NCBI GenBank assembly: GCA_965219095.1
Contig: CBDCMT010000001.1
Location: forward strand, 1,024,001 to 1,088,000
From: Bdellovibrionales bacterium
Lineage (GTDB): Bacteria; Bdellovibrionota; Bdellovibrionia; Bdellovibrionales; UBA1609
DNA: 64,000 nt
Direction of reading: 5' to 3'
Part shown: piece after piece, positions 1 to 14,826 of the stretch
Layout of the letters: the number at the start of each line of letters is the position of its first letter
Position numbering within the stretch: the stretch's first letter is position 1
Made by a program: the position numbers and the translations under genes
Notes under the pieces: model-generated
Told to the model about the DNA's origin: nothing
What the model saw: only the letters and a program-made list of their open reading frames with translations
The model's database searches: none

Positions 1-1043
1 TCATATGTCAGGGTTTCTATCAAAAAAAGAGCGAAAAGATTTACTCTATGAACTATCTCTAGAGAAAAATATTAAATACGTAAAAAGGATTATGACAATT
101 CTCCATTTAGATAAAGGTGAGTTGTGTAAAGATATTTCCCGTTTTCTTTTCATTGATGAGGGCACGATAAGAGCCTGTAGAGATCGTTATAACAAAGGTG
201 GGATAGAGTGCTTAATCAACGACAATTACAACCCTAAAAGGTCCTTTTTAACTAAAAAAGAGGAGAAAATGCTTTTAAAGGAGTTAGAAAAAAGAATTTT
301 TCCGTCATCACAGTCTGTTATTCAGTTCATTGAGGAGAATTTTGGTGTTACGTACTCAACAAGTGGTGCGATTGATCTTCTCCATCGCCTTGGTTTTTCT
401 TATAAAAAAGCCACAGCGATACCGGGTAAGGCAAAGAGAGAAGAGCAGAAAAAGTTTGTGCGTAAATACAAGAGAATTAAAAAGAAAGACGGTCCTGTTT
501 ACTTTGCTGATTCCACACATCCTGAGTGGGGCCCTACGATTTCATATGGTTGGATAAGAGAGGGTAAGAAGTTTGAAGTGAAGACCAATTCAGGCTGGAG
601 AAAAAGAGTGAATGTTTGTGGAGCTATTGAGATCAATAGTTTGAAGACGGTAGTCAGGAGTTATAAGACAGTTAACCATGTTTCCATATGTGATATGCTC
701 CATCATATTCGCAAGAAGCATCCCGATGAAAAAGAGATTCATCTTATCTTAGATGGGGCCGGATACAATAGATCGAAGTCTGTCAAGAAGTTAGCGAAAG
801 AGTTGAATATAAAACTTGTTTATCTTCCTCCGTACTCACCGAATTTAAATCCTATAGAAAGACTTTGGAAGTTTATGAAAAAAGAGGTCACGGCGAATCG
901 ATATTATGAAAACTATGACGATTTCAAGGGAAGTTTAAGTCAATTTTTTAGAGGAATACGAAAACACAGATCTAAATTAGAAACTTTGATAACTGATAAC
1001 TTCTCTATCTTAGGAAACTGAAAACCTAAACGGAAGCACTATA
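1..1043 (+). mobile_element. IS630-family element (left end outside window)
   Basis: Contains an IS630 transposase. Right end ctgaaaacctaaacggaagcacta|TA at 1018-1043 recurs as a terminal repeat at 49656-49681. Confidence 0.85.
5..1021 (+). CDS. IS630-family transposase
   Basis: N-terminal HTH; DDE motifs YFADSTH, LILDGA, LPPYSPNLNPIERLW. Confidence 0.95.
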   Translation: MSGFLSKKERKDLLYELSLEKNIKYVKRIMTILHLDKGELCKDISRFLFIDEGTIRACRDRYNKGGIECLINDNYNPKRSFLTKKEEKMLLKELEKRIFPSSQSVIQFIEENFGVTYSTSGAIDLLHRLGFSYKKATAIPGKAKREEQKKFVRKYKRIKKKDGPVYFADSTHPEWGPTISYGWIREGKKFEVKTNSGWRKRVNVCGAIEINSLKTVVRSYKTVNHVSICDMLHHIRKKHPDEKEIHLILDGAGYNRSKSVKKLAKELNIKLVYLPPYSPNLNPIERLWKFMKKEVTANRYYENYDDFKGSLSQFFRGIRKHRSKLETLITDNFSILGN

Positions 1044-1694
1044 TTTATCGGTTAAAAATTTGAGCTCATATATCGAAAAATTATTAAAAGTAGTCTCTAA
1101 ATCATCCATATCATTTACATCAGATGGTGATAGCTTGTCTAAAGACTCCTTGTATTGCTTTATTAGAAATTTTTCTTGTGTGCCTGCTATTTTCTGTAAG
1201 TTAGAAATATACTCATTCATAATACTGATTAGATTATCTTCGTTTAATTCACTCTCTTGTTTTGCATGAAAATAATTATTTCTTCTTTTAATAATTTTAG
1301 TAGAAGATTTTTCTAAAGAGTTGTCCTTTTCTGCAATGGTTCGAAATAGGCGAAAAACTGTCTTTTCATTAACTATAGAAAAGCTCGAAGGATGGATCTT
1401 CTCATCGCCTCCTACATACAGATCATTTTCTTCTCTAGAAAACCCACTTAAAGCAATAGAACGCTCCCTCTTCAGGGTATGATCATTTAATATACGGCTT
1501 AATTGATGATAAACTAAGGTCATGTAGAAAAGGTGGAGATAATAGAAAGCCCCCGTATAAATTTCAGATTCTATACATTTTGAAAAGCTTTTTAAATTAT
1601 ATTTTAAATATGTATTAGTTTTGCTATCAGATCTTATAGGAGTAAATTCGCATATTTGTGTTATTAAATTTTCCAAAACTACTTTGAATTCCAA
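1026..1694 (-). CDS. Hypothetical protein with HEPN-like RNxxxH motif; C-terminus runs into the IS630 end
   Basis: Helical 222-aa protein containing KRRNNYFH. Start overlaps the hsdMS stop; stop codon lies inside the IS630 terminal repeat. Confidence 0.55.
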   Translation of the reverse strand: MEFKVVLENLITQICEFTPIRSDSKTNTYLKYNLKSFSKCIESEIYTGAFYYLHLFYMTLVYHQLSRILNDHTLKRERSIALSGFSREENDLYVGGDEKIHPSSFSIVNEKTVFRLFRTIAEKDNSLEKSSTKIIKRRNNYFHAKQESELNEDNLISIMNEYISNLQKIAGTQEKFLIKQYKESLDKLSPSDVNDMDDLETTFNNFSIYELKFLTDKYSASV

Positions 1695-4162
1695 ACTTCT
1701 TCTATTTTTTTCTTAATTTTATTTTCGTTTATTTCGATTAGTTTTTTACAAGAACTGACACAGTCTTGCTCTTTTTCAATTTCAGCGACAATTTCTTTTT
1801 GAACTGAGAGAGGAGGGAGGGGGATTTGGATTTTTTCTAAATTACCTTTTGTTATATGGACTAAGCCCACTCCTCCATGTAAATTTTTTTCAACTTCAGA
1901 AACAACTTTTTTTAAGGATAAGTGTAAAAATTTTCTTATATACTTTGAAGAATGTTCAACCTTAAAAATATGTTGGTTCAATATCCCCATACCTTTATCC
2001 CATATATGAGAACCAAAGGAAGTTCCTTTTGAGCCAGACCATGAAAACAAAAGATCTCCTTTGTTGACTAGATACGTATCGTCAATTTTCTTAGAATAAT
2101 AATTGAAACTTGCATTAGGATTATTTAAATTCTGAATCCTTATTATAGGGATTCCAGATTCACTTTCTTTTTCCCAATCTGATGGCTTGAATGCCTTTCC
2201 ATTTATAAAATTACAAACATCCCCCAACTTCACCATAGGCCATTTGGGATCAATTTTAAAAGTCGGTTTCCAGTTTTCAACAACCTGTTTTGCACCATCA
2301 ATAATTTTTTGATAGCCGTCAATTTCAGCGACAATTTCTTTTTGGATTGAGAGAGGAGGGAGGGGGATTTGGAATGGGGATAGGTTTTGTCTAGTAATCT
2401 GAGGTTGTGCTGAACCTGAAATTATTTTAGATAAATCAGCTTCTATCAAGAGGTTAAATATAAATTTTTTATTTAACTCCTTTTCTTTTATTGGTTTTAT
2501 AACCATAGCATTACCAGTAATCCAAGATTGCTTTTCAGAAATATTGATATTTCCACAAGTTGCACCCCTACAAGTAACCAAAACCTCACTTTCTTCGTGA
2601 TTATATTTATCATATTTGCCAATAGGACCATTAGCACCAAAGACGACATATTTTCCAGACGAACTCATTTCTTTTTGCGAGATTGTTTTTGGTTGATAAA
2701 TCTCACACACATCCCCCAGCTTCACCATAGGCCATTTGGTAACAACCTTTTTCTGTGGTCTATAGAGATTCCCACTTAAATTCCAACTTCCTTCATCAAT
2801 AATCTTTTTCTTCTTACACCAAAAAGAAACCTCACTCTTTTCTTTGTTCTCCTTAGACCAAGATTTTAAAACTCGAAAAGCTTCTGGCAAATCATTTTCA
2901 TCAATCTTTCTTCGAGTAGCTCCAAGTTCAAAGCCATCATTTTGTACGTTCACAAATAAAATCTCATCGGACTTTTTAGCTCTTTTTCTATCTAAAAACA
3001 AAATAGAAGTTTTAACACCACTATAAGGCTCAAACACTTTAGCTGGAAGACTCACTACAGCCCAAAGGAAACTCCTTTCTACAAGCATTTTTCTTAAAGC
3101 CTTGTAAGCTTTGTCTGATTTAAAGATAATTCCCTCCGGCACAATAATACCTGCTCTTCCATTTAGCTTTAAGTGCTCTGCTATGTAATCTACAAATAAA
3201 ACTTCTGAGCGATTGGCTCGTACTGAAAACCTATTATGTGGCCTAATACCTCCTTTAGGCGTCATAAAGGGAGGGTTAGCTAATACGACATCAAAATCAT
3301 TTCCCCAACGATTATCACTTGTTAAGGTGTCGTATTCAAAAATTTTAGGCTCTTTAAACTTATGAAGGTACATATTAACTAATGCAAGCTTTACCATATC
3401 AGGAGATATATCATAACCTTCAAAGTTTTTCTGTAACTGTTTTCGCTCACTCAGCTTTAGCTTTTTACCTTCGTATCTGCCATTACTTTGAATTTGAATA
3501 GATAAACCGTCGTTTTCACTTCTTTCAAAACTGTGTTCAGGTTTTTTTGGATCATAATTCCTAGAGTTATTTTTAACAATATGTTTATAAGATGAAATTA
3601 AAAACCCTCCTGTCCCACAAGCTGGATCAAGCACTGATTCATTTTTCTTAGGATCTAAAACCTCCACAATAAAGTCGATAATATGTCTTGGCGTCCTAAA
3701 CTGCCCTGCATCTCCTTGGCTTCCTAAAATAGAAAGTAAATACTCAAAAGCATTGCCTAAATTTTCACTGTCATCATAGCTAAACCAGTCAATTTCTTTT
3801 AGGAATAAGCTTAAAGTTTCTGCATCTCTATAGGGGAGAAAAGCATTTTTAAAAACGTCTTTAAAAAGAGAGGGCAGTGTTTTATGTGTAGGGATTTGGT
3901 TAATAGCTTGAATGTAAAGATCAAGTCGTTCTTGGCCTGATAGCTTTTTTTCAATAATTTTAGGCCAACTGTATTTTTTAAACTCCCCTATAAAATAGGA
4001 AGCGTTTCCTCCATTCTCTCTAGACTCTTGATCTATGTCGTCCATAAATTTGTAAATTAAAGCTGTGGTAATTTGATCCACTTGAGCTTTGGGGTCGGGG
4101 ACTTTACCTACAAGGATGTTTCTCGCAGAGTCTATTCTTCTTTTTGTTTCTTGATCTAACAT
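1679..4162 (-). CDS. Type I restriction-modification fused N6-adenine methyltransferase + specificity subunit (HsdM-HsdS)
   Basis: GQFRTPRHI, DPACGTGGF and LANPPF motifs, followed by two TRD units each bounded by KWPMVKLGDVC ... IPLPPLS(I/V)QKEIVAEI. Confidence 0.93.
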   Translation of the reverse strand: MLDQETKRRIDSARNILVGKVPDPKAQVDQITTALIYKFMDDIDQESRENGGNASYFIGEFKKYSWPKIIEKKLSGQERLDLYIQAINQIPTHKTLPSLFKDVFKNAFLPYRDAETLSLFLKEIDWFSYDDSENLGNAFEYLLSILGSQGDAGQFRTPRHIIDFIVEVLDPKKNESVLDPACGTGGFLISSYKHIVKNNSRNYDPKKPEHSFERSENDGLSIQIQSNGRYEGKKLKLSERKQLQKNFEGYDISPDMVKLALVNMYLHKFKEPKIFEYDTLTSDNRWGNDFDVVLANPPFMTPKGGIRPHNRFSVRANRSEVLFVDYIAEHLKLNGRAGIIVPEGIIFKSDKAYKALRKMLVERSFLWAVVSLPAKVFEPYSGVKTSILFLDRKRAKKSDEILFVNVQNDGFELGATRRKIDENDLPEAFRVLKSWSKENKEKSEVSFWCKKKKIIDEGSWNLSGNLYRPQKKVVTKWPMVKLGDVCEIYQPKTISQKEMSSSGKYVVFGANGPIGKYDKYNHEESEVLVTCRGATCGNINISEKQSWITGNAMVIKPIKEKELNKKFIFNLLIEADLSKIISGSAQPQITRQNLSPFQIPLPPLSIQKEIVAEIDGYQKIIDGAKQVVENWKPTFKIDPKWPMVKLGDVCNFINGKAFKPSDWEKESESGIPIIRIQNLNNPNASFNYYSKKIDDTYLVNKGDLLFSWSGSKGTSFGSHIWDKGMGILNQHIFKVEHSSKYIRKFLHLSLKKVVSEVEKNLHGGVGLVHITKGNLEKIQIPLPPLSVQKEIVAEIEKEQDCVSSCKKLIEINENKIKKKIEEVWNSK
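1776..2373. repeat. 55-bp direct repeat pair (1776-1830 / 2319-2373) in HsdS conserved regions
   Basis: 53/55 identical by manual alignment. Confidence 0.9.
2217..2739. repeat. 31-bp direct repeat pair (2217-2247 / 2709-2739) in HsdS conserved regions
   Basis: 30/31 identical; encodes KWPMVKLGDV twice. Confidence 0.9.
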
Positions 4163-4171
4163 AATTAAAAT

Positions 4172-6697
4172 TTAATCCATATAAGTATTTAATGTCACAT
4201 AGTTTTTTACATACTCTGGGACTTTAGTCTGCCACTTAGTGTTGCCATTTAATGCCTTGAAATCCGTCATGCTAAAACCTGTGTAGTTGTGGAGATCCCC
4301 ATATTTCTTACTATCAATGATTTTCCTAAATTCACTATCTACAATATAAACACTCAAATAATTCTTAATAGGGAGAACGTGCTGATTTTCTGGCTTATAA
4401 ATAGAGACAAATTTCTCACACTCATCTTCTAAAAGTTCTTCTCTAGTTGGAAAACGATCAATAAAGCCAAAAGTTCGCTCTAAAACCTCTTTCCATGAAA
4501 GCCTTCTATCTAGATTTTCAGATATTCTTATCTTCTCTAAATTCAAATAAAGCTCTGGTTTATCCTCGTATTCATATCTTACAATATTTTCTGCCACTTG
4601 CCAATTCTCCTCTTCAACAGCCTTTTTGATTCGATTATCATTATAAAAAACCTCTTTAGCCTTACCCCATAATTCTCTATCAACTTTCATGCCAGCCTCA
4701 CCTACCTGTATTTCAGAGATAGTGCTTATTTTGTCCGGAACATGGATTTCAATCTCATCTATAGTTATGGGAGGACTTTCTTCTCCACTCCCGGCTTCTG
4801 CAGTTAATTGAGGTAGCTTTAAAGCTTCATCATAATTAAATTTTTCTTCAAAATACTCACAATTGGCAAAAAAATCAAAGAGTTTAAATTTTTCCTTTTC
4901 TATTTGGTGTTTTTTCTTGTTCTTGTCCTCATATTTAAATACAAACTTTCTCGTTCCTCGTCCTTTCATTTGCACAAAGTTAGTTGGAGAAAAAATTGGT
5001 CTCATTAAGCAGAGGTTTAAAATGTCTTGGCAGTCATAACCTGTTGTCATCATGCCTACTGTGACACAGACTCTTGTTTTACTGGTTTTATAGCCCTCTA
5101 AAAATTCTGTATAACCACTAAGTTTGTTGTTGGCAAAAAGAATAGTGTTTTGTTGAGAGTTTTCTGTATCAGAAGTGACTTGTCTAGCAAAATCTGAGTT
5201 GTATTTATCAGGCCACATCTTTTGAGCCATTTGATTTAAGATATGAGTGATTTTAGAAGCATGTTTTTGACTTACACAAAAAATGATAGATTTGCCAATT
5301 TCACCACTTATAGGATCTTTCAAGGCCTCTTCAAGGAAACTTTTACAAAAGACAATATTCGTTTTCTCGGAAAAGAACTTTTTCTCAAAATCCTTATTAA
5401 AAAAGGCTTGTTCTTCTTCACCCTCAGTATTTTCTATTTTAATGCTATATCCTTTTTCTGATAAAAGCTTTGTAGTAATTTCAGTTCTTGCATCGACAAC
5501 TATGGGGTTGATAAGATAGCCTTCGTTAACTCCGTCAACAGGACTATATTTAAAAGTAGGCTCACTGTTTTCACAGCCAAAGGTTGTATAGGTATCAAGC
5601 AAGAGTCTTCTCTCCCATTTTCTTTGGTCTTTTTCTGAAAGCTCCAGTTTATCTACATTTTTTAAATAGTCACGAGGAGTAGCGGTTAACCCCAACTTGT
5701 ATCCAATAAAGTACTCAAAGACAGAGCGACTGTTTCCGCTCATAGAGCGGTGAGCTTCATCTGAGATCAAAAGATCAAAGTCTGTTGGGGAAAAATGTTT
5801 CTTGTACTTATCCCCAGTTAAGAGGCTTTGAATTGTTGAAACAACAATTTCTGTTTTATTCCAATCGTCTTTATTTTGTTTATAGATTACACATTGGTAA
5901 TCTTTTTTTAAGTAATCTTGAAAATTTTTATAGGCTTGATCTTCAAGTTCTAGCCTATCTACTAAGAAAAGTACTCTTTTAGCATTTCCTGTTCTCAAAA
6001 AAAGTTTAATAATGGCAGCAGAAAGTAGAGTTTTACCTGTTCCTGTTGCCATTTCAAAAAGAAACCTTTGATTTCCTTTTTTTATTGACTCTTGAAGAGC
6101 TTTAACAGCATTTAACTGGTAGGGGCGTAAAATACGAACATTGCCCATTTCACAAATTTCTTTTCTGTATTGTGGATTACTCCAATTTGAATCCGCTAAA
6201 AGCTCAGGTTTCTGAGAAACAGCAATATAATCTTCCTCAACAGTTTCATTATGTAACAACTTAGGATTTGGCTGAAAATTCATTCTGTAAGTTAAAGACT
6301 CTTGGCTTGGAAGTTCTCTTATGATCTCAGGATTTCCTGTTTCTAAATCCCAAAAGTAATGAAGATTTCCATTTGATAAAATAACAAAACGAACGTTGAG
6401 ACCATGAGCATATTTTCTAGCCTGTTCTTTTCCGTCCAATGGATTTTTTTCTTCCTTTTTAGCCTCTAAAACCACAAGGGGAAAATTATTTTCATCGAGA
6501 AGTAAATAATCCACAAAACCATATTTTGTTTTTTCAAAGTCGTTTCCATGAGAAGCAATTTCACTTTGTGTGATTTTAACATTGGGTTCAAGCCTGATAT
6601 TAGCTTTACCATTGTTGTCGTCAGAAAATCGCCACCCTGCTTTTTCAAGGAGTTTGTTAATTTTTATGCGAGATTGGGCTTCTTTTTTGTTGGGCAT
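4172..6697 (-). CDS. hsdR: Type I restriction endonuclease R subunit (EcoEI/EcoAI-like)
   Basis: PD-(D/E)xK VDYLL..VLEAKK, Walker A MATGTGKT, DEAH, GLTATP, QMKGRGTR. Start set to ATG 6697 (MPNKK), just after the TIR stop. Confidence 0.92.
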   Translation of the reverse strand: MPNKKEAQSRIKINKLLEKAGWRFSDDNNGKANIRLEPNVKITQSEIASHGNDFEKTKYGFVDYLLLDENNFPLVVLEAKKEEKNPLDGKEQARKYAHGLNVRFVILSNGNLHYFWDLETGNPEIIRELPSQESLTYRMNFQPNPKLLHNETVEEDYIAVSQKPELLADSNWSNPQYRKEICEMGNVRILRPYQLNAVKALQESIKKGNQRFLFEMATGTGKTLLSAAIIKLFLRTGNAKRVLFLVDRLELEDQAYKNFQDYLKKDYQCVIYKQNKDDWNKTEIVVSTIQSLLTGDKYKKHFSPTDFDLLISDEAHRSMSGNSRSVFEYFIGYKLGLTATPRDYLKNVDKLELSEKDQRKWERRLLLDTYTTFGCENSEPTFKYSPVDGVNEGYLINPIVVDARTEITTKLLSEKGYSIKIENTEGEEEQAFFNKDFEKKFFSEKTNIVFCKSFLEEALKDPISGEIGKSIIFCVSQKHASKITHILNQMAQKMWPDKYNSDFARQVTSDTENSQQNTILFANNKLSGYTEFLEGYKTSKTRVCVTVGMMTTGYDCQDILNLCLMRPIFSPTNFVQMKGRGTRKFVFKYEDKNKKKHQIEKEKFKLFDFFANCEYFEEKFNYDEALKLPQLTAEAGSGEESPPITIDEIEIHVPDKISTISEIQVGEAGMKVDRELWGKAKEVFYNDNRIKKAVEEENWQVAENIVRYEYEDKPELYLNLEKIRISENLDRRLSWKEVLERTFGFIDRFPTREELLEDECEKFVSIYKPENQHVLPIKNYLSVYIVDSEFRKIIDSKKYGDLHNYTGFSMTDFKALNGNTKWQTKVPEYVKNYVTLNTYMD

Positions 6698-6699
6698 TT

Positions 6700-7194
6700 T
6701 TACCTTCCAGCTTGTTGAGCCGCTTTTTCGATCCAATCCCCTAAGCTTTGATGACCACTGTCAGTTATCCAGTTATAATAAGAACAACAAGGATATTCCA
6801 GAGTTCCACCATTATTGCTCTTGAAATTCATTGGTGGCTTGCTAAAAGGGTCTTCCCCCTTAGTTGATATATTACCATTTTGATCTTTTACATTATGAAT
6901 GTAAACCCCAAGTAAACCATTTTTTCTATCAAGACTCTTTCTTATTTCATAATTAACATATTGACTCTCAGAAGTACTGGAGCCAATTAAAACACAAGTA
7001 ACAGAAGTTCCTTTCAACTGCTCATCTATCCACTTTTCAATTGCTTCTTCTGTTCCTTTTTTAACCTTCTCAATATCAGAAGAGTCTATAAAGCCTGCGT
7101 TTTCATAGCTTCCTTTAGTAAGCCAGCTATGTCTAACTTGATTTATTCGCCAAACATCATCCCAATCAAAACTAAAAAATACTTTTCTTGCCAT
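6700..7194 (-). CDS. TIR-domain protein (MTH538/DUF1863, ThsB-like)
   Basis: MARKVFFSF.W.DVWR..QVR, SVTCVLIG, YVNYEI (catalytic Glu position), GLLGVYIH. Confidence 0.9.
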   Translation of the reverse strand: MARKVFFSFDWDDVWRINQVRHSWLTKGSYENAGFIDSSDIEKVKKGTEEAIEKWIDEQLKGTSVTCVLIGSSTSESQYVNYEIRKSLDRKNGLLGVYIHNVKDQNGNISTKGEDPFSKPPMNFKSNNGGTLEYPCCSYYNWITDSGHQSLGDWIEKAAQQAGR

Positions 7195-7212
7195 TTGTCA
7201 TACTCCTTTTAT

Positions 7213-7635
7213 TTAATAATTTGATTGCATTGTTATGAAGAAAACTAAAAATACAAATAATAACTGACCTATATAGAAAATGTTTAAAGTTAATGAAAAC
7301 ACAGATAAAATCCAATTACATTTTGATTTTTCAAAGTGTTTCGCCACATTCATTTCAAATTCAGTATCTTTTTGCACTCTCACATCATTATAAACTTTTC
7401 GAAATAATCGCTCCTGCCATAAAAAATACCCGTCTAAAATCCAAAAAAATATAACAGGAACAGAAAAAGATAAAATAATATATGGATTTTCCACATCAAA
7501 TCTTGCTATTAAAACAATAGAAGCAACAACCAAGGTCATACTCCAACCTTTTAAAAGAAAAGAGTTATGAGCTATTCGATTGACTACCTTTTGTATCATC
7601 TCTAAATGTCGAACTACCTTTTCTTCTGAATCCAT
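7213..7635 (-). CDS. Small ~3-TM membrane protein (HLEMIQ..NSFLLKGW family), candidate effector
   Basis: Three hydrophobic segments; motifs HLEMIQKVVNRIAHNSFLLKGW and FWILDGYFLWQERLFR; ends 18 bp before the TIR gene. Confidence 0.75.
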   Translation of the reverse strand: MDSEEKVVRHLEMIQKVVNRIAHNSFLLKGWSMTLVVASIVLIARFDVENPYIILSFSVPVIFFWILDGYFLWQERLFRKVYNDVRVQKDTEFEMNVAKHFEKSKCNWILSVFSLTLNIFYIGQLLFVFLVFFITMQSNY

Positions 7636-7785
7636 AAATAACCCTAACCTCTTTCTTTATACTTAAAATTCTAATAAAAAAGTAGTTCTAATCATTAGAC
7701 ACTCAACATCATTTTGTTGAGACTTTTCTCTAGAAACTGGGAGCCCTCTCATTTTGTAGGAGCATAACATAATTAAAGCATTTTT

Positions 7786-7858
7786 GCCTCCTCAAAAGAA
7801 TCTGTGGATTTCCGGAGGTTCTGGCAGTTTTCCAAGGTTATGATATAAGGCAATTTTT
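7786..7858 (-). mobile_element. Isolated ISL3 right-end remnant
   Basis: Near-identical to 18122-18195 (gcctcctcaaaagaatctgtgg...). Confidence 0.85.
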
Positions 7859-7922
7859 AGGAATGGTATTACTCATCCTCTCTCTCATCAAGCTCTTTTT
7901 TAGTCTCCCTTTTTTTGTGCTG

Positions 7923-8561
7923 TCAGTTATTTTGGTTCTCAAAATGTTCAAAGGTTTTACGGCTAAACTTTCCAAAAGTAATGATTTCTGTTCGTGGTAT
8001 AATGACTTCCATATCAATCAAATCAAAGTGGTTTTCATATTTAGGATAATAAGTGTTCCAGACTACCTCCTTTGTTTCTTTTTTTCTGTATCCACTCTTA
8101 AACGGTACTATAGAAATTGTTTGAGACTCATGTCTTGATTTTGGATTTTCTGGATATTTCCATAAAAGACCTTGATAGGTCTTTCCGTTTTTAAGAGTCA
8201 TTAAAACTTCTTTTTTGTCCCATTCAATACATTTTTTATAAAAGTTATCTTGTACTGGTAGAAATATCCACTTAGCAATGAATTCAATTTGAGCTAATAA
8301 TAGTAAAGCAGGCGTAAAAATTAATGATGCAATTAATAATATAAATAATTTCTTTTTTAGCCCCTCAAGACTACATGTTTCCATAATTAATTCAGCAGGA
8401 AGCCAAGTTAAAGCTGCTATCAAAACAAGGGTAAAAATATAAGGCCAGCCTGAAAGATTAACAGCTGTTGCTGCTAATCTTTTAGCAGGCCTATGTTTAT
8501 TATAAAAATGAATGAAAACTATTCCGGGAATAGCCCAAAGAATATTATGAAAGTCTAGCAT
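7923..8561 (-). CDS. Membrane protein with C-terminal soluble beta domain (DUF6338-like)
   Basis: Three N-terminal TM helices followed by VLMTLKNGKTYQG and EVIIPRTEI. Confidence 0.55.
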   Translation of the reverse strand: MLDFHNILWAIPGIVFIHFYNKHRPAKRLAATAVNLSGWPYIFTLVLIAALTWLPAELIMETCSLEGLKKKLFILLIASLIFTPALLLLAQIEFIAKWIFLPVQDNFYKKCIEWDKKEVLMTLKNGKTYQGLLWKYPENPKSRHESQTISIVPFKSGYRKKETKEVVWNTYYPKYENHFDLIDMEVIIPRTEIITFGKFSRKTFEHFENQNN

Positions 8562-8567
8562 CTGGTT

Positions 8568-8774
8568 TTATGAGCTTTGTTTTTTTGCAACTGATTTGTT
8601 ATGAGCTCTAATTGCTCGTTGTACTTCGGGATCATTCCAGAGCTCTTCTGCTGTTGGCCAAGGTTCTGCTGCTGTTCCTTTTTTACGGAAAAGCCAGTTT
8701 CCATAACCTAATTTTTGTTTTTTCTCTTTTGTTTTTTGTGTTGGTTTCACCCTATCTTTAATCCTTTTGGCCAT
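8568..8774 (-). CDS. Small basic hypothetical protein
   Basis: GAGG SD before ATG 8774; ends 6 bp before the next gene. Confidence 0.55.
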   Translation of the reverse strand: MAKRIKDRVKPTQKTKEKKQKLGYGNWLFRKKGTAAEPWPTAEELWNDPEVQRAIRAHNKSVAKKQSS

Positions 8775-8926
8775 AAATAAAAACCTCATTACCTAATTCT
8801 CATTTTACAGTCAAAAAAAGCAAAGAGCAAGTTAAAAAATCACGGAAATTTCTTGGTGTATTATAAAGGTGCCAAAAAAGAATACGTTGTCTTGTGACGT
8901 GGGCTTGGAGCTATCAACCATTTGAT

Positions 8927-9035
8927 GAGGATGTCCGTAATCCCGTTAGACTTTCCAGAAAGGGCATTTTTTGTACCCTGAGTTTAGCTCAGGGGAGTCC
9001 TTTTTTCCAATCCTAACGATTTTACGGACAATCTT
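8927..9035. repeat. ~109-bp nested inverted-repeat element (MITE-like or structured RNA/ssDNA)
   Basis: tgtccgtaa/ttacggaca, cgttag/ctaacg, aaagggc/gtccttt (one G-T) and ccctgag/ctcaggg pair concentrically. Confidence 0.7.
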
Positions 9036-9106
9036 GTCCTGGAAAAAGTGGAGTCAACATACAAGCCGTTATAAAAAACTATGTTAAGTACTAAGGAAGC
9101 CAGGGT

Positions 9107-9469
9107 TCAGGTCAGCTTCGAGTGAAACTGTAAGGGTAAGGACCCCGCACTTGTGCGGGGGGCATCTATTTTTTCCTGAGAATCATAGAACTTCTTTCTT
9201 AACCTTTCAAAAATAGCTCTATCGTAACGAGATGTTCTTTCGAATAAACTTTTGTAGTACATAATTTCATTAAGGTCGTTATCAGAGTATTGAGCTTTAT
9301 GAAGAGCAAAGTTTTTAAAAAAGTCACTTAGTTTTTTTTCTATGTATCCATTATCAAGACTTTCTATACTTACAGACACTCTGAAAGTAGAGCCACCACC
9401 TGCATAAACACTTTCAAGGAAACTGAAAGTAAGTAAGATTGATAAAATAATAATACTACCTTTTTTCAT
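9107..9469 (-). CDS. Hypothetical exported protein
   Basis: Signal peptide MKKGSIIILSILLTFSFLESVYA; start overlaps the upstream stop. Confidence 0.55.
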   Translation of the reverse strand: MKKGSIIILSILLTFSFLESVYAGGGSTFRVSVSIESLDNGYIEKKLSDFFKNFALHKAQYSDNDLNEIMYYKSLFERTSRYDRAIFERLRKKFYDSQEKIDAPRTSAGSLPLQFHSKLT

Positions 9470-9990
9470 TTTGCCTCCTTTAAACTTTTCATAGATGAAA
9501 TTTGGATTGCATTAAGTGTTATATTGTATATGTTACCGCTAGTGATTGGTTTTGACAAAGAAAATAGCTTATCAATAAGTTTTATATATTCCTCTCTAAA
9601 TGTTTCCATAGTGGTATCATTTGTAGCAACGACTGTATTTTCTCCATGCTTAAGATTATCTGTATCTGTTTTCAATAAAGCGTCCTTACTTTTAAGAATA
9701 TGACAATTCACGCTTTTGTTTCTTGAGAAGTTTTCTCCTGTAAGAATAAAGTTTAGCTTCCTAGCTCGATAAAAATCTCCATCTTTTACAAGAAGCCCTA
9801 ATTCTCTTAACCCTTCTATAGCCTCATTTGCTTCTTTAAGATTGACTTGAAAAATCTCTGCTACAACTTGAGGTGAGGATTTGAGTGATTTCATAGTTAA
9901 ATAAGCGTGGAGTGCTGTCCATAGGGTTAAAGACAGCCATTTGTCGTACAGTGTTTCTAGTTGAGTTTGTTTTTCTTTATTTATATTCAT
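9466..9990 (-). CDS. DUF4423/TIGR02147-like winged-helix protein
   Basis: W..ALH..L....SSPQVVAEIFQVNLKEANEAIEGLRELGLL and C-terminal IYNITLNAI pattern. Confidence 0.6.
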   Translation of the reverse strand: MNINKEKQTQLETLYDKWLSLTLWTALHAYLTMKSLKSSPQVVAEIFQVNLKEANEAIEGLRELGLLVKDGDFYRARKLNFILTGENFSRNKSVNCHILKSKDALLKTDTDNLKHGENTVVATNDTTMETFREEYIKLIDKLFSLSKPITSGNIYNITLNAIQISSMKSLKEAK

Positions 9991-10003
9991 TTTTCTCCTT
10001 TCT

Positions 10004-10426
10004 TTAACATTCTAGATAGTGTTTAAGCCTGTAATAAGATTCTCCTAATTTATTTTTTGAGGCTTTTCTTTCTGTTGTTTTTAGCACTTCTTTTAAAAGA
10101 ACTCGCTTTTCAAGTTCATTAAAATGATTCATAAGGTTTGTAACATCTCGTCCTATACGAATGTCACCTTCTTTTTGGCTAGAGGAGAGTTTTTCATCTA
10201 ATAGAGACTTTAAATCAATTCCTAAAATCTCTAAAAGACAAAAAAGATGTCTTGATTTCAAACTAGTCCTGCCATTTAAAAATTTACTTAGAGATGTATT
10301 ACTAATGCCCATAATTTTAGAAGCCTGACTGATACTCATTCCTCTTTCTTTCAGCAAAGAAGCCATTTTCATAGGAACTGGCCCATTGATTGCTTTTATT
10401 CTTAACATACAGGATAAGGCTATCAT
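10004..10426 (-). CDS. XRE-family HTH transcriptional regulator
   Basis: LKERGMSISQASKIMGISNTSLSKFLNG; divergent from the tra operon; true start may be 10372. Confidence 0.8.
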   Translation of the reverse strand: MIALSCMLRIKAINGPVPMKMASLLKERGMSISQASKIMGISNTSLSKFLNGRTSLKSRHLFCLLEILGIDLKSLLDEKLSSSQKEGDIRIGRDVTNLMNHFNELEKRVLLKEVLKTTERKASKNKLGESYYRLKHYLEC

Positions 10427-11668: not shown

Positions 11669-12201
11669 GTGCTATCTATGAAGACACTCATTATCTTAGC
11701 CTCTTTTTTTCTTGTATCTTGCTCTCATTTTTCAAACTCTCAAACCAAAAGAGATGTTTTCAAAAAAGTAGCTTTAAGTATCGTGGTTGGCGGTATTTAC
11801 GGCTCTACTTTGAAAGAAAACAAAAAGAAGAATGTTCTGCTCTTTTCCAGTCTTTTAGGTTTAGGGGTAGGAGTTTATGGTCTTTATCATCTTGATGAAA
11901 GTAAGCAACTTAAAGTCTTAAAAAACAACTTTCAGAATTAAAAGAAACAAAGGGTCTTACTTTTTTAGGGAAAAATAAAGCTCTCCTGCAACAAGGAGAA
12001 GTTCCTTTTTATAAAAAAGGACTTCCTTCTCATTTAAAGCACCTTGTTGTACCCAGCGAATGGAGTCTTTATGAGTTGGAAGAGGAAATAGGTGGAAAAG
12101 AATGGATACAAGTTGAAGTTTTGAAAGTTTTAAAAGGAAATAGGCTTTTTGAGTTAAAGCCTTCAAAAATCAACCCTTATTTACGAAAGGAGATGAAATG
12201 A
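11669..12201 (+). pseudogene. Lipoprotein with glycine-zipper-like segment, split by a -1 frameshift at an A6 run (11920-11925)
   Basis: Lipobox LVSC. One extra A joins ...KVLK to KQLSELKETKG...RKEMK*, whose TGA overlaps the pilin ATG. Confidence 0.65.
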
Positions 12202-12464
12202 AAAAGCATATAATCTTTATGTTCATTTTAATGATTTGTTTTTGTCTTGAGGCACGAGATTTAGAAGCCAGTTTAAGAGACATCAGTGAGACTGTAAGAA
12301 GTATAGGGATCATTTTAGGTGTTCTTTCTTTTTTGGTTTCAGGAGTTTGTTTTTACTTTTCAAAAAGTACAGGCATAGAGAGGTTTCAATCAGCAGCTGT
12401 AGGAACGCTTATTTTTGCCACCTCATCGACTATTTTTTCTATTATTTTTAATTCATTTAACTAG
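12198..12464 (+). CDS. VirB2/TrbC-like conjugative pilin
   Basis: Signal peptide plus two hydrophobic helices, 88 aa, upstream of virB3/virB4. Confidence 0.7.
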   Translation: MKKHIIFMFILMICFCLEARDLEASLRDISETVRSIGIILGVLSFLVSGVCFYFSKSTGIERFQSAAVGTLIFATSSTIFSIIFNSFN

Positions 12465-12476
12465 AGGAAGGAAGTT

Positions 12477-12749
12477 ATGCACAGTTCAAAGATATTAAAT
12501 AAGCAGTCAAATTTTTTAGGTCTAAGTACTTCTGATTTTCTTTTTTTAAGTGGGTTTTACATGCTCTCTCAAGCTTTGCTTTTCCCTTTAGGTTTTGAGT
12601 TTTTTGGATTGATCCTTGTTATTCTACTTTTGTTTTTCCTGATTCCTATAAGGTTAAAGTACAGAAAGAAAATTATAAGAAATACTCTTTTTTATCTTTT
12701 TATAAAAATTTTTAAACGAGGATTTGTGAATGTTTATAAAAAAGTATGA
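12477..12749 (+). CDS. VirB3/TraL-like membrane protein
   Basis: 90 aa, two TM segments, FLGLS motif, overlaps the virB4 start. Confidence 0.6.
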   Translation: MHSSKILNKQSNFLGLSTSDFLFLSGFYMLSQALLFPLGFEFFGLILVILLLFFLIPIRLKYRKKIIRNTLFYLFIKIFKRGFVNVYKKV

Positions 12750-14826
12750 GAAACTAAAGGACTACACTTGGCTTTCTAGAGGATTTTTAGGGAAAACCTT
12801 TAAGCTGTGTTTAAAAGATTTTGAAAGCCTTGAGAACGAAAACCTTTACAATTCTATAGAGAATTTTTTAAAGAACTTAAGAGTAGAAGACTACGCTAGC
12901 TTTTCTTTGTTTTCCAGTGTTTCTTATGACTCTAGCTTTGATAACAAGAGGAGAAATGATTTAAAAAAGGTTGGTTTTGTGAAAAAAAGACTTTTTTTCA
13001 ACATCTTCTCTCAAAAGAAAACCCCTCTTTTTTGTAAAAAAAGTGAGATTTTTGAGCAAATGGAAAGCATCAATCAGTTTTCTGATAGCTTTCTAGAACT
13101 AAAGCCTATTTTCATTAAATCCTTTTTTAAAAAACTATTTAATGTTGAAAGGTTAAAACTTGAACCTTTTGGCTTTTCTAACAAAGACGAGGTTTTAGGG
13201 ATTTTAAAACTTCATACTCTTTCTAGCTCTCTTTTAGATTTAAAAAATCTAATTTTTTTAACAGAAAGACTCCCTCTTCCTTTTGAGTATCATATAAAGA
13301 TCAAAAAAATTGATAAGTTCAAACAAAGAGCAAGCCTTTCAAGACAAACTAAGCAGGAGGCTAGAGAGGTCAGTCAAGAGAGTTTTTTACGCTATCAGGC
13401 TACTCAGGAAGCCTTGTGTGATATGGAGCTTAGAGGAAATGATTTTTTTCAGTTTGAGGTGCACGTTGTGTTAAGAAGGGATTCCAAAAGAGTTTTGAGA
13501 AATGACCTTCTTCTTTCTCAAAAAGAACTTACTTTACTTGGTGATTTTCACATGGAAACTGTGGGAGCTTTTTCTTCCTTTTTATCTTTATTACCAGCCC
13601 ATAGTTTCCATGTTCCTTTAATATGTCAGGATAGAGAACTGGGGTGTTTTCTCCCTCTTTTCACAAGAGGAGTAGGAGGGTTTCAAGCCTCAAAATCCTC
13701 TCTTATTTATCACAGAGTTGATCAATCTTTAGATGAATTTAATCCTTTCCACAAGGATTATGATAACTACTGCGGAGTGGTTATTGGAAAATCAGGACGG
13801 GGGAAGTCTGTTTTTACTAATCTTCTTCTTGGCAGTCTTTCTTATGACCAAAGCCTTAAAGTCATTTTGGTTGATGTAAAAGGTTCTTATCAAAAGAGAA
13901 TTAAAGAGCTTGAAGGACAAACTTATAACATATCGGTGGACAAGTCTTGTGCTCTTGACCCTTTTAGACAGCTTACAAACAAAAAAGAAAGTATTGAAAT
14001 CATTTTATCTTTTTTGAAATCTTTAATTGCAGAAAAGCTCTCACCTCGAGAAGAATCAAACCTTGAAAGAAGCCTTATAGAGTACGCAAGCCAAGCTCAA
14101 ACCCCAAGCCTAGAAGAGTTTGTAAAAACATTAAAGAGTTTTCAAAAAATACACATTTTAGAGAGGTGGACTAAAGGCTCTTTAAAAGAAAATATTTTTT
14201 CAAACTCAGACTCCAATTTTGAATTAAAAAATCTAAATTATTTTAACTTTAGTGAAATTATGACAGCTCAAGATAGGGACACCTCTTTAGCTGTCATGTC
14301 GGCTGTGATGAGTGAGTTCTCTCACCAGCTCTTAGAAAAAGAAGATCATGACAAACTCATTTTTATTGTGGATGAAACACCTTTTTTCATTCAGCACTCT
14401 TTTGAGACCTTTAAACTTTTGAGTAAAAACGTAAGAAAGCTTAACGCTTCTCTTCTTCTTATAGCTCAAGTTTCAAGTGATTTGATTTTAGGGGGTGACA
14501 GGTCTCTTATTGACAATAGTGAATTTAAAGTTCTTTTTTCCCTTGATGACCAAGAAAAGGTCTTTCAGCAAAGATTTTCTCTTAGAGAAGAGGAAATGGA
14601 GGTTTTAAAACAATTAAGGACAAAAAAAGGTGAATACTCTCAGTTTTTATTGAAAGACTCACTTTGTTCTAAAGTGGGGTTTTTACGATTAAGTGACAAA
14701 GAGTACATACAAGTCACAACAAACCCTAAAGAGTTTCAAAAACTAAACACTCTTAAAAAAATGTACCCTTTTTATAGTGATGAAACATTATCCCAAGCCT
14801 TTAGATTTTTAGAGAGGTTATCATGA
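12730..14826 (+). CDS. VirB4/TraC-family conjugative ATPase
   Basis: Walker A GKSGRGKS, ILVDVKGSY, Walker B IVDE, RKLNA, KKGEYSQFL. Confidence 0.88.
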   Translation: MFIKKYEKLKDYTWLSRGFLGKTFKLCLKDFESLENENLYNSIENFLKNLRVEDYASFSLFSSVSYDSSFDNKRRNDLKKVGFVKKRLFFNIFSQKKTPLFCKKSEIFEQMESINQFSDSFLELKPIFIKSFFKKLFNVERLKLEPFGFSNKDEVLGILKLHTLSSSLLDLKNLIFLTERLPLPFEYHIKIKKIDKFKQRASLSRQTKQEAREVSQESFLRYQATQEALCDMELRGNDFFQFEVHVVLRRDSKRVLRNDLLLSQKELTLLGDFHMETVGAFSSFLSLLPAHSFHVPLICQDRELGCFLPLFTRGVGGFQASKSSLIYHRVDQSLDEFNPFHKDYDNYCGVVIGKSGRGKSVFTNLLLGSLSYDQSLKVILVDVKGSYQKRIKELEGQTYNISVDKSCALDPFRQLTNKKESIEIILSFLKSLIAEKLSPREESNLERSLIEYASQAQTPSLEEFVKTLKSFQKIHILERWTKGSLKENIFSNSDSNFELKNLNYFNFSEIMTAQDRDTSLAVMSAVMSEFSHQLLEKEDHDKLIFIVDETPFFIQHSFETFKLLSKNVRKLNASLLLIAQVSSDLILGGDRSLIDNSEFKVLFSLDDQEKVFQQRFSLREEEMEVLKQLRTKKGEYSQFLLKDSLCSKVGFLRLSDKEYIQVTTNPKEFQKLNTLKKMYPFYSDETLSQAFRFLERLS

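Follow-up and report, generated by a model that had tools for sequence, protein, structure and literature searches.

A defence-island composite in a Bdellovibrionales genome holds a restriction-modification satellite family of HEPN-like genes that is probably undescribed

To our knowledge, the back-up toxins known to guard restriction enzymes are few: PrrC, Ronin, PARIS and some retrons. We analysed a small HEPN-like gene that follows a type I restriction-modification (RM) locus in a 64,000-nucleotide (nt) stretch of a Bdellovibrionales bacterium (GenBank assembly GCA_965219095.1, contig CBDCMT010000001.1, C2 below); this whole stretch, C2:1024001-1088000 of a 3.1-Mb genome that is 94% complete, is referred to as the window. 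According to passages of PMC3632139, most HEPN domains of defence loci are toxic RNases. Among described guards, PrrC of EcoprrI is a HEPN anticodon nuclease that guards a type Ic RM system and, in the portions of PMC3632139 and Payne 2024 that treat it, resembles the gene studied here in being a HEPN-motif gene nearly always tied to type I RM and optional for RM. PrrC and RloC have an N-terminal ABC NTPase, whereas the family described here (222–260 amino acids, aa) consists of HEPN with helical extensions and gave no ATPase match. PrrC sits among separate hsd genes, whereas the HEPN-like gene follows a fused hsdMS, and its product had no PADLOC PrrC match. Ronin, as described in parts of Silas et al. 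(bioRxiv 10.1101/2023.04.06.535777), is a small toxin always linked to hsdM/hsdS, just as the HEPN-like gene is RM-linked; in the same parts, the toxin RonA is silenced by HsdMS and freed by anti-restriction proteins. RonA is, on that partial account, a 61-aa membrane peptide whose locus usually lacks hsdR, whereas here a soluble HEPN-like protein follows an intact hsdR and fused hsdMS.

Five open reading frames (ORFs) occupy window 7635..1026 on the minus strand and encode a transmembrane (TM) protein, a TIR protein, HsdR, a fused HsdM-S with two target recognition domains (TRDs) and the HEPN-like protein:

7213..7635, minus strand: candidate Thoeris-type effector with three TM segments (PDC-M50A), 140 aa; PADLOC E 2.1e-38
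6700..7194, minus strand: ThsB-type TIR (PDC-M50B), 164 aa; PF08937 E 1.7e-23, PADLOC and PDB matches
4172..6697, minus strand: compact type I HsdR, 841 aa; Pfam domains and motifs
1679..4162, minus strand: fused HsdM-HsdS, 827 aa, two TRDs; Pfam domains and motifs
1026..1694, minus strand: RM-satellite HEPN-like protein, 222 aa as read; invariant E110, R138 and H143, predicted fold; its 3′ end is the end of an IS630 element

The spacing is tight, with 18 bp between TM and TIR, 2 bp between TIR and HsdR, 9 bp between HsdR and HsdM-S, and a 16-bp overlap between HsdM-S and the HEPN-like ORF; judged by the starts of homologues, the HEPN-like ORF may instead begin at the next in-frame TTG (1676), which would leave a 2-bp gap. 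Promoter and terminator counts are about at the shuffle level (34 versus 27.5 ± 4.9 and 7 versus 4.3 ± 1.9, respectively). An earlier note on this DNA had the five ORFs, the gaps and the overlap right, and its gene identities agree with the Pfam, PADLOC and motif matches. Its proposal that the five genes are one integrated RM-guard system fails on distribution, as the layout recurs in none of 35 TM loci (31 genome loci and 4 plasmid loci) and in none of 29 RM/HEPN loci. The hsdR of this family, the fused hsdMS and the HEPN gene were absent from all 35 TM loci, and the TM gene and close TIR homologues from all 29 RM/HEPN loci; the five genes are therefore not one conserved system. The five genes are two modules of different distribution stacked on one strand, TM+TIR and RM+HEPN. 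The note's expectation that the accessory genes would co-occur with hsdR/hsdMS elsewhere accordingly failed for TM-TIR and was borne out for the HEPN-like gene. What is new here is the HEPN-like gene; TM+TIR and the fused type I RM are already known kinds.

We characterized the linkage of the HEPN-like gene with whole-genome profile searches that are blind to gene context. The family was found in none of 400 other genomes of its own phylum, in 6 of 381 genomes in the phylum of a Bacteroidales genome, in 1 of 381 in each of two further phyla, in 1 of 72,556 plasmids, in 1 of 50,697 phage records and in one IMG/VR locus. In L084 and L085 the sequence stops at the 5′ side of the gene, leaving nine of the 11 loci informative. 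In all nine, the HEPN gene lies on the same strand and at most 2.7 kb downstream of a methylase-specificity (M-S) fusion, a near-exclusive linkage to type I RM of the kind that marks PrrC and RloC. The M-S partner belongs to the same family as the one here in eight loci (35–62% identity). The remaining partner (L057:3871-7586) is a distant single chain with a nuclease-like N-terminus, methyltransferase (MTase) motif I and TRDs and with no helicase motif; because this nuclease-MTase-TRD chain lacks a helicase, M-S is the common element. The HEPN gene abuts the fusion in six of the nine loci (overlap to 11 bp) and is parted from it by one or two genes in three. Even with such a fusion in every genome, the chance of this placement is about 5e-4 per locus, a figure to be read with the mutual relatedness of the six Bacteroidota loci. 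Intact, compact three-gene loci are found on the Paracoccus plasmid NZ_CP025432.1 and in L043. The latter (L043:3542-9974) is a prophage-like viral contig in which hsdR-hsdMS-HEPN is followed by a DUF3644 (PDC-S19) gene.

The HEPN-like protein also diverges together with its partner. The HsdM and HEPN trees both split the window and L043 from the rest, and the pairwise identities of the two proteins correlate (rho 0.91, Mantel 2/5040; 0.86 and 4/720 without a near-duplicate), a result that comes from seven taxa and mainly one deep split. It appears that the HEPN gene needs RM and that RM does not need the HEPN gene. This one-way dependence is like that of PrrC and Ronin and makes an RM-guard RNase a likely role.

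A full HMMER scan returned 51 HEPN-like homologues at E ≤ 0.001, and a word-index search returned only the query itself. We aligned 33 sequences, mostly full-length, and left out 18 that were mostly short or weak. H54, M58, E110, R138 and H143 are invariant in this alignment, and E110, R138 and H143 also in a 36-sequence set. The RxxxxH motif to which the earlier note had pointed (R138-H143) is thus present and invariant; the family carries the conserved Rx4-6H with an upstream acidic residue that characterizes HEPN domains, and RxxxxH alone arises in 19% of shuffles. The structure model is confident (pLDDT 88.8) and all-helical. Its top VIA-align match is AbiA 488-628, the HEPN domain in the C-terminal region (129 residues aligned at a root-mean-square deviation of 4.0), with a Z of 8.1 that lies within the chance range of helical bundles; lower matches in the top 45 include sacsin HEPN, AF0298, HepS (9oik, Z 5.9), LsoA, RnlA and Csm6. 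Foldseek placed HEPN proteins at ranks 3 and 4 and gave no match at E ≤ 0.001, ESM Atlas neighbours are unnamed or AF_1680/DUF4145-like, and the single sequence match of the HEPN profile in the PDB has an E-value of 0.43. On the strength of the conserved residues and the modelled fold, the RM-linked protein is a probable member of the HEPN superfamily. The gene itself has no significant Pfam match and no NCBIfam or PADLOC model, and no PADLOC family fits it well. No longer or fused forms were seen among 6752 candidates, which is weak evidence, and we found no description of this family in the literature, with subscription papers and bioRxiv supplements outside the search. An AvrM_N match (E 0.012) fell below the cut-off and was treated as noise.

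The 3′ end of the HEPN-like ORF is overlapped by an insertion sequence (IS), which the earlier note had missed:

1..1044, plus strand: IS630, starting 99 bp left of the window, transposase at 5-1021; NF033545 E 2.4e-67, ends and inverted repeats

IS630 spans window -99..1044 and supplies the last codons and the stop of the HEPN ORF, so that 650 bases of the ORF lie outside it and the last helix is removed; a short basic open stretch lies beyond its other end. The catalytic motif and the core fold, upstream of IS630, are untouched. IS630 cut off the last helix, and therefore this genome's copy may be dead; judged from the sequence, the HEPN layer in this genome may be weakened or off. In contigs of three DNA runs, two of which pass the junction towards the IS, we saw no IS-free HEPN allele, a count that does not establish its absence. 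The IS load of this genome is very high, with 42 near-full IS630 copies among 126 matches in addition to other transposases, and it breaks up many loci.

The sequence motifs of the RM core are intact. HsdR starts at ATG 6697, matches Pfam HSDR_N, ResIII and Helicase_C, and retains its nuclease (D..EAK, QxxxY) and helicase motifs (ATGTGKT, DEAH, TAT, QxxGRxxR); it is EcoAI/FtnUII-like, with an E-value of 5e-73 that is below the curated cut-off. HsdM-S matches Pfam N6_Mtase and two Methylase_S domains, with motifs DPACGTGGF and NPPF intact. The locus therefore has the features of type I RM, a PD-(D/E)xK nuclease and superfamily 2 (SF2) motor in HsdR and N6-MTase motifs I and IV fused to two TRDs. 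Homologues of HsdR and fused HsdMS occur in 56 plasmid records, in 2 of 400 other genomes of the same phylum and in 11 of 31 TM-carrying genomes; scans with HsdR yielded two metagenome loci and nothing among viral contigs. As a type I variant, the pair is widespread. Natural 'type IMS' RM, which likewise joins a compact HsdR and a fused HsdM-S in two genes, is found in E. coli plasmids, Paracoccus and Bacteroidota, among others, and the locus here differs by its two TRDs and its flanking TM-TIR and HEPN genes. The genome holds a second, IS-damaged copy at C2:1140780-1144547 (L087), comprising the 3′ half of hsdR and an hsdMS with different TRDs (97.3% nt identity over window 2699-5449; MS protein 71% identical overall). 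No TM, TIR or HEPN gene stands beside this copy, which is followed by a short ORF, cut by IS630, that looks by eye like the N-terminus of IetA. Repeats shared by both hsdMS copies could permit TRD exchange.

TM+TIR is an independently travelling pair that recurs across phyla. A close TIR homologue lies within 9 kb of the TM gene in 17 of the 31 genome loci (18 with one distant ThsB_TIR), and an annotated TIR adjoins it in all four plasmid loci, the three scanned belonging to another ThsB clade. The pair also occurs on plasmids of Terribacillus, E. coli and Klebsiella, and the annotation of the stretches examined shows no RM gene. More distant type I genes lie near the TM gene in 7 of 31 genome loci. 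HsdR of the family described here is present but unlinked in 11 of the 31 TM-carrying genomes, its nearest copy being about 40 kb from TM-TIR (G416), and 12 stretches around those unlinked copies lacked TM, close TIR homologues and HEPN. A viral-contig scan with TM found nothing. In three Latescibacterota loci (L018, L022, L023), a TM gene with no detected TIR stands directly behind a small DnaJ-domain gene (the Pfam scan covering L018 only), and in two further TM loci (L028:8269-8946, L029:8000-8944) an ORF with no Pfam match precedes the TM homologue in the TIR place, possibly another signal enzyme.

The TM protein has three hydrophobic segments (25-44, 51-72 and 109-138) and 1405 homologues; it gave no significant Pfam match, its profile found no PDB sequence match, and its structure model is poor (pLDDT 64). 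The TIR is the sole ThsB_TIR match in the genome and matches ThsB1 (E 2.6e-59) and PDC-M50B (E 9.5e-55) in PADLOC. Among solved structures, its nearest relative is 9B7D/6LHY, which is named ThsB1 (E 2.5e-28, with the YEI-motif glutamate E83 aligned), which we take to be the B. cereus type I enzyme that makes 3′ cyclic ADP-ribose (3′cADPR). A ThsB-type TIR with a catalytic Glu beside a separate effector gene is the general Thoeris layout, and TM+TIR is predicted from its sequence to be Thoeris-type. Types I, II and IV were rejected, as the neighbours of the TIR are the 140-aa TM gene and hsdR, with no SIR2-SLOG, Macro-TM or caspase effector beside it.

The pair has a closer counterpart in PDC-M50, with adjoining PDC-M50A (TM) and PDC-M50B (TIR) matches 18 bp apart and no difference found, PDC-M50 being itself a computational candidate. 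The earlier note did not recognise the architecture as a named system; TM+TIR is already a PADLOC candidate. PDC systems are described, in the portions of Payne et al. (bioRxiv 10.1101/2024.01.29.577857) that define them, as candidates whose first examples lay within BREX, DISARM or type I RM; the string M50 is absent from its main text, and we found no paper naming PDC-M50. Type V Thoeris, in the sections of Yirmiya et al. (bioRxiv 10.64898/2025.12.03.692087) that present it, pairs a TIR with a three-TM DUF2270 effector (ThsF) activated by 3′cADPR, and it shares with the pair here a ThsB-clade TIR beside a small three-TM protein. Its effector is DUF2270, whereas none of 31 TM homologues matched DUF2270 (PF10028) at E ≤ 1; five genomes held no DUF2270 seeds for a profile-profile comparison. 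E. coli TIR-IV, in passages of Wang et al. (PMC11350192), likewise combines a ThsB-clade TIR with a small three-TM protein, and the genera those passages name (Priestia, Lactiplantibacillus, Levilactobacillus, Campylobacter, Klebsiella, Providencia and Erwinia) overlap the TM-family plasmid hits at the genus level only, with no accession matched.

In the mechanism that we propose, the two modules would act separately. Phage infection would trigger the TIR to produce an ADP-ribose-type signal, for which 3′cADPR is the best guess from the closeness to type I ThsB, and this signal would open a pore formed by TM-protein oligomers and arrest the cell independently of RM. In the second module, HsdR-(HsdMS) would restrict unmethylated DNA. 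The HEPN protein itself lacks a sensor or ATPase domain, and the M-S subunit would hold it in a latent state. Once the RM complex is engaged or destroyed by an anti-restriction protein of a phage (Ocr/ArdA/Stp-like), the HEPN protein would be released, dimerise and cut tRNA or mRNA through RxxxxH, as with PrrC and Ronin. On balance, by analogy with these systems, we favour such a latent HEPN protein, held by M-S and released by anti-restriction proteins, as the putative back-up RNase of RM. The guard idea of the earlier note does not survive for TIR-TM; for the HEPN protein we retain the guard role as something that we infer from the sequence.

Several observations weigh against these proposals. 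Linkage and co-divergence are co-inheritance and not proof of guarding, and the correlation between the trees depends on few taxa. Of the nine other loci, two carry damaged HEPN genes (a frameshift in L082, a fragment in L083), and the copy here is truncated, with 12 residues after E210 versus 20–55 in 31 of 35 homologues. Pfam HEPN_RiboL-PSP matches only 3 of 33 members (best 4.4e-6), and the Foldseek search and the VIA-align Z speak only moderately for a HEPN fold. For the TIR-TM module, 13 of 31 genome loci showed no TIR in the neighbourhood of the TM gene. Moreover, the HEPN gene is missing from most loci of this RM family, which have other genes beside or within them; these vary (Ppl/TrlF ATPase on an E. 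coli plasmid, DUF3644, TIR_2, PDC-M30, AbiL-like, Fic, DarTG), and therefore the downstream slot is a general hotspot. A slot that hosts many unrelated stand-alone systems would suit an autonomous abortive-infection RNase or addiction toxin that has long ridden behind hsdMS through shared expression and transfer; uncoupled from any guard function, it would either recognise a phage protein itself or stabilise the RM locus. Up to two genes part hsdMS and HEPN in three of nine loci, and the fold matches include HepS, a single-gene HEPN of 218 aa with, per its PDB title, direct sensing of a phage protein. We consider this autonomy unlikely, though of real weight: the other genes of the slot are known or were observed apart from RM, whereas the HEPN family stands behind an M-S fusion in every informative locus, whether on a plasmid, in a prophage or on chromosomes from several phyla, and diverges in step with HsdM.

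The IS630 truncation and the broken copies elsewhere would also accord with a protein that is a non-toxic RM accessory, such as an RNA-cutting regulator of RM expression, or a decaying pseudogene in this genome. Against this stand the intact catalytic motif and core fold upstream of the IS and the mostly toxic character of HEPN RNases in the defence loci covered by the cited part of PMC3632139, and we regard it as very improbable. About as improbable is one integrated system in which TIR-TM and HEPN both guard the RM core. The tight one-strand spacing, the distant type I genes beside TM in several loci, the HsdR some 40 kb from TM-TIR in G416 and the definition of PDC systems as embedded in type I RM, BREX or DISARM speak for it. 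However, its distribution largely refutes it, and the genome's second hsdR-hsdMS copy, though IS-damaged, has none of the three accessory genes beside it.

The region is a defence island, because an HNH gene and an IetA (AAA ATPase)-IetS (S8 protease) pair lie beyond IS630, left of the window, at C2:1019764-1023700 (L032:11764-15700), on the plus strand and converging on the five genes across IS630. On the other side, one more feature stands just upstream of the TM gene:

7780..7859, no strand assigned: multicopy repeat of about 80 bp; 121 of 143 genome matches are at least 65 nt

This repeat is possibly a miniature inverted-repeat transposable element or a promoter donor. A block with 212-aa and 73-aa ORFs of no known kind follows (window 7852-9516) and is duplicated at C2:1240585-1242268 (95% identity). 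Further on are genes for DUF4423 and HTH regulators, followed by small pilin-like genes and one for a TraG/VirB4-like ATPase (window 9466-10426 and 12198-14826), a set that suggests an integrative conjugative element adjoining the island.

The locus is thus a defence-island composite holding an RM-satellite HEPN family that is probably undescribed. Its TIR-TM arm, a known candidate that travels alone, illustrates that the tight packing of a defence-island 'operon' can come about by chance stacking. PADLOC 2.0, Pfam and NCBIfam contain no entry for the small HEPN family, which was seen only behind M-S fusions and is a directly testable new guard candidate. More tentatively, at a little under an even chance, the 220–260-aa family may be a minimal, sensor-less guard RNase of fused-HsdMS type I and type IIG-like enzymes, with the M-S subunit as its antitoxin; it would have co-evolved with this subunit across phyla and would fire once the enzyme is struck by phage DNA mimics or other inhibitors, providing a third solution beside PrrC and Ronin.

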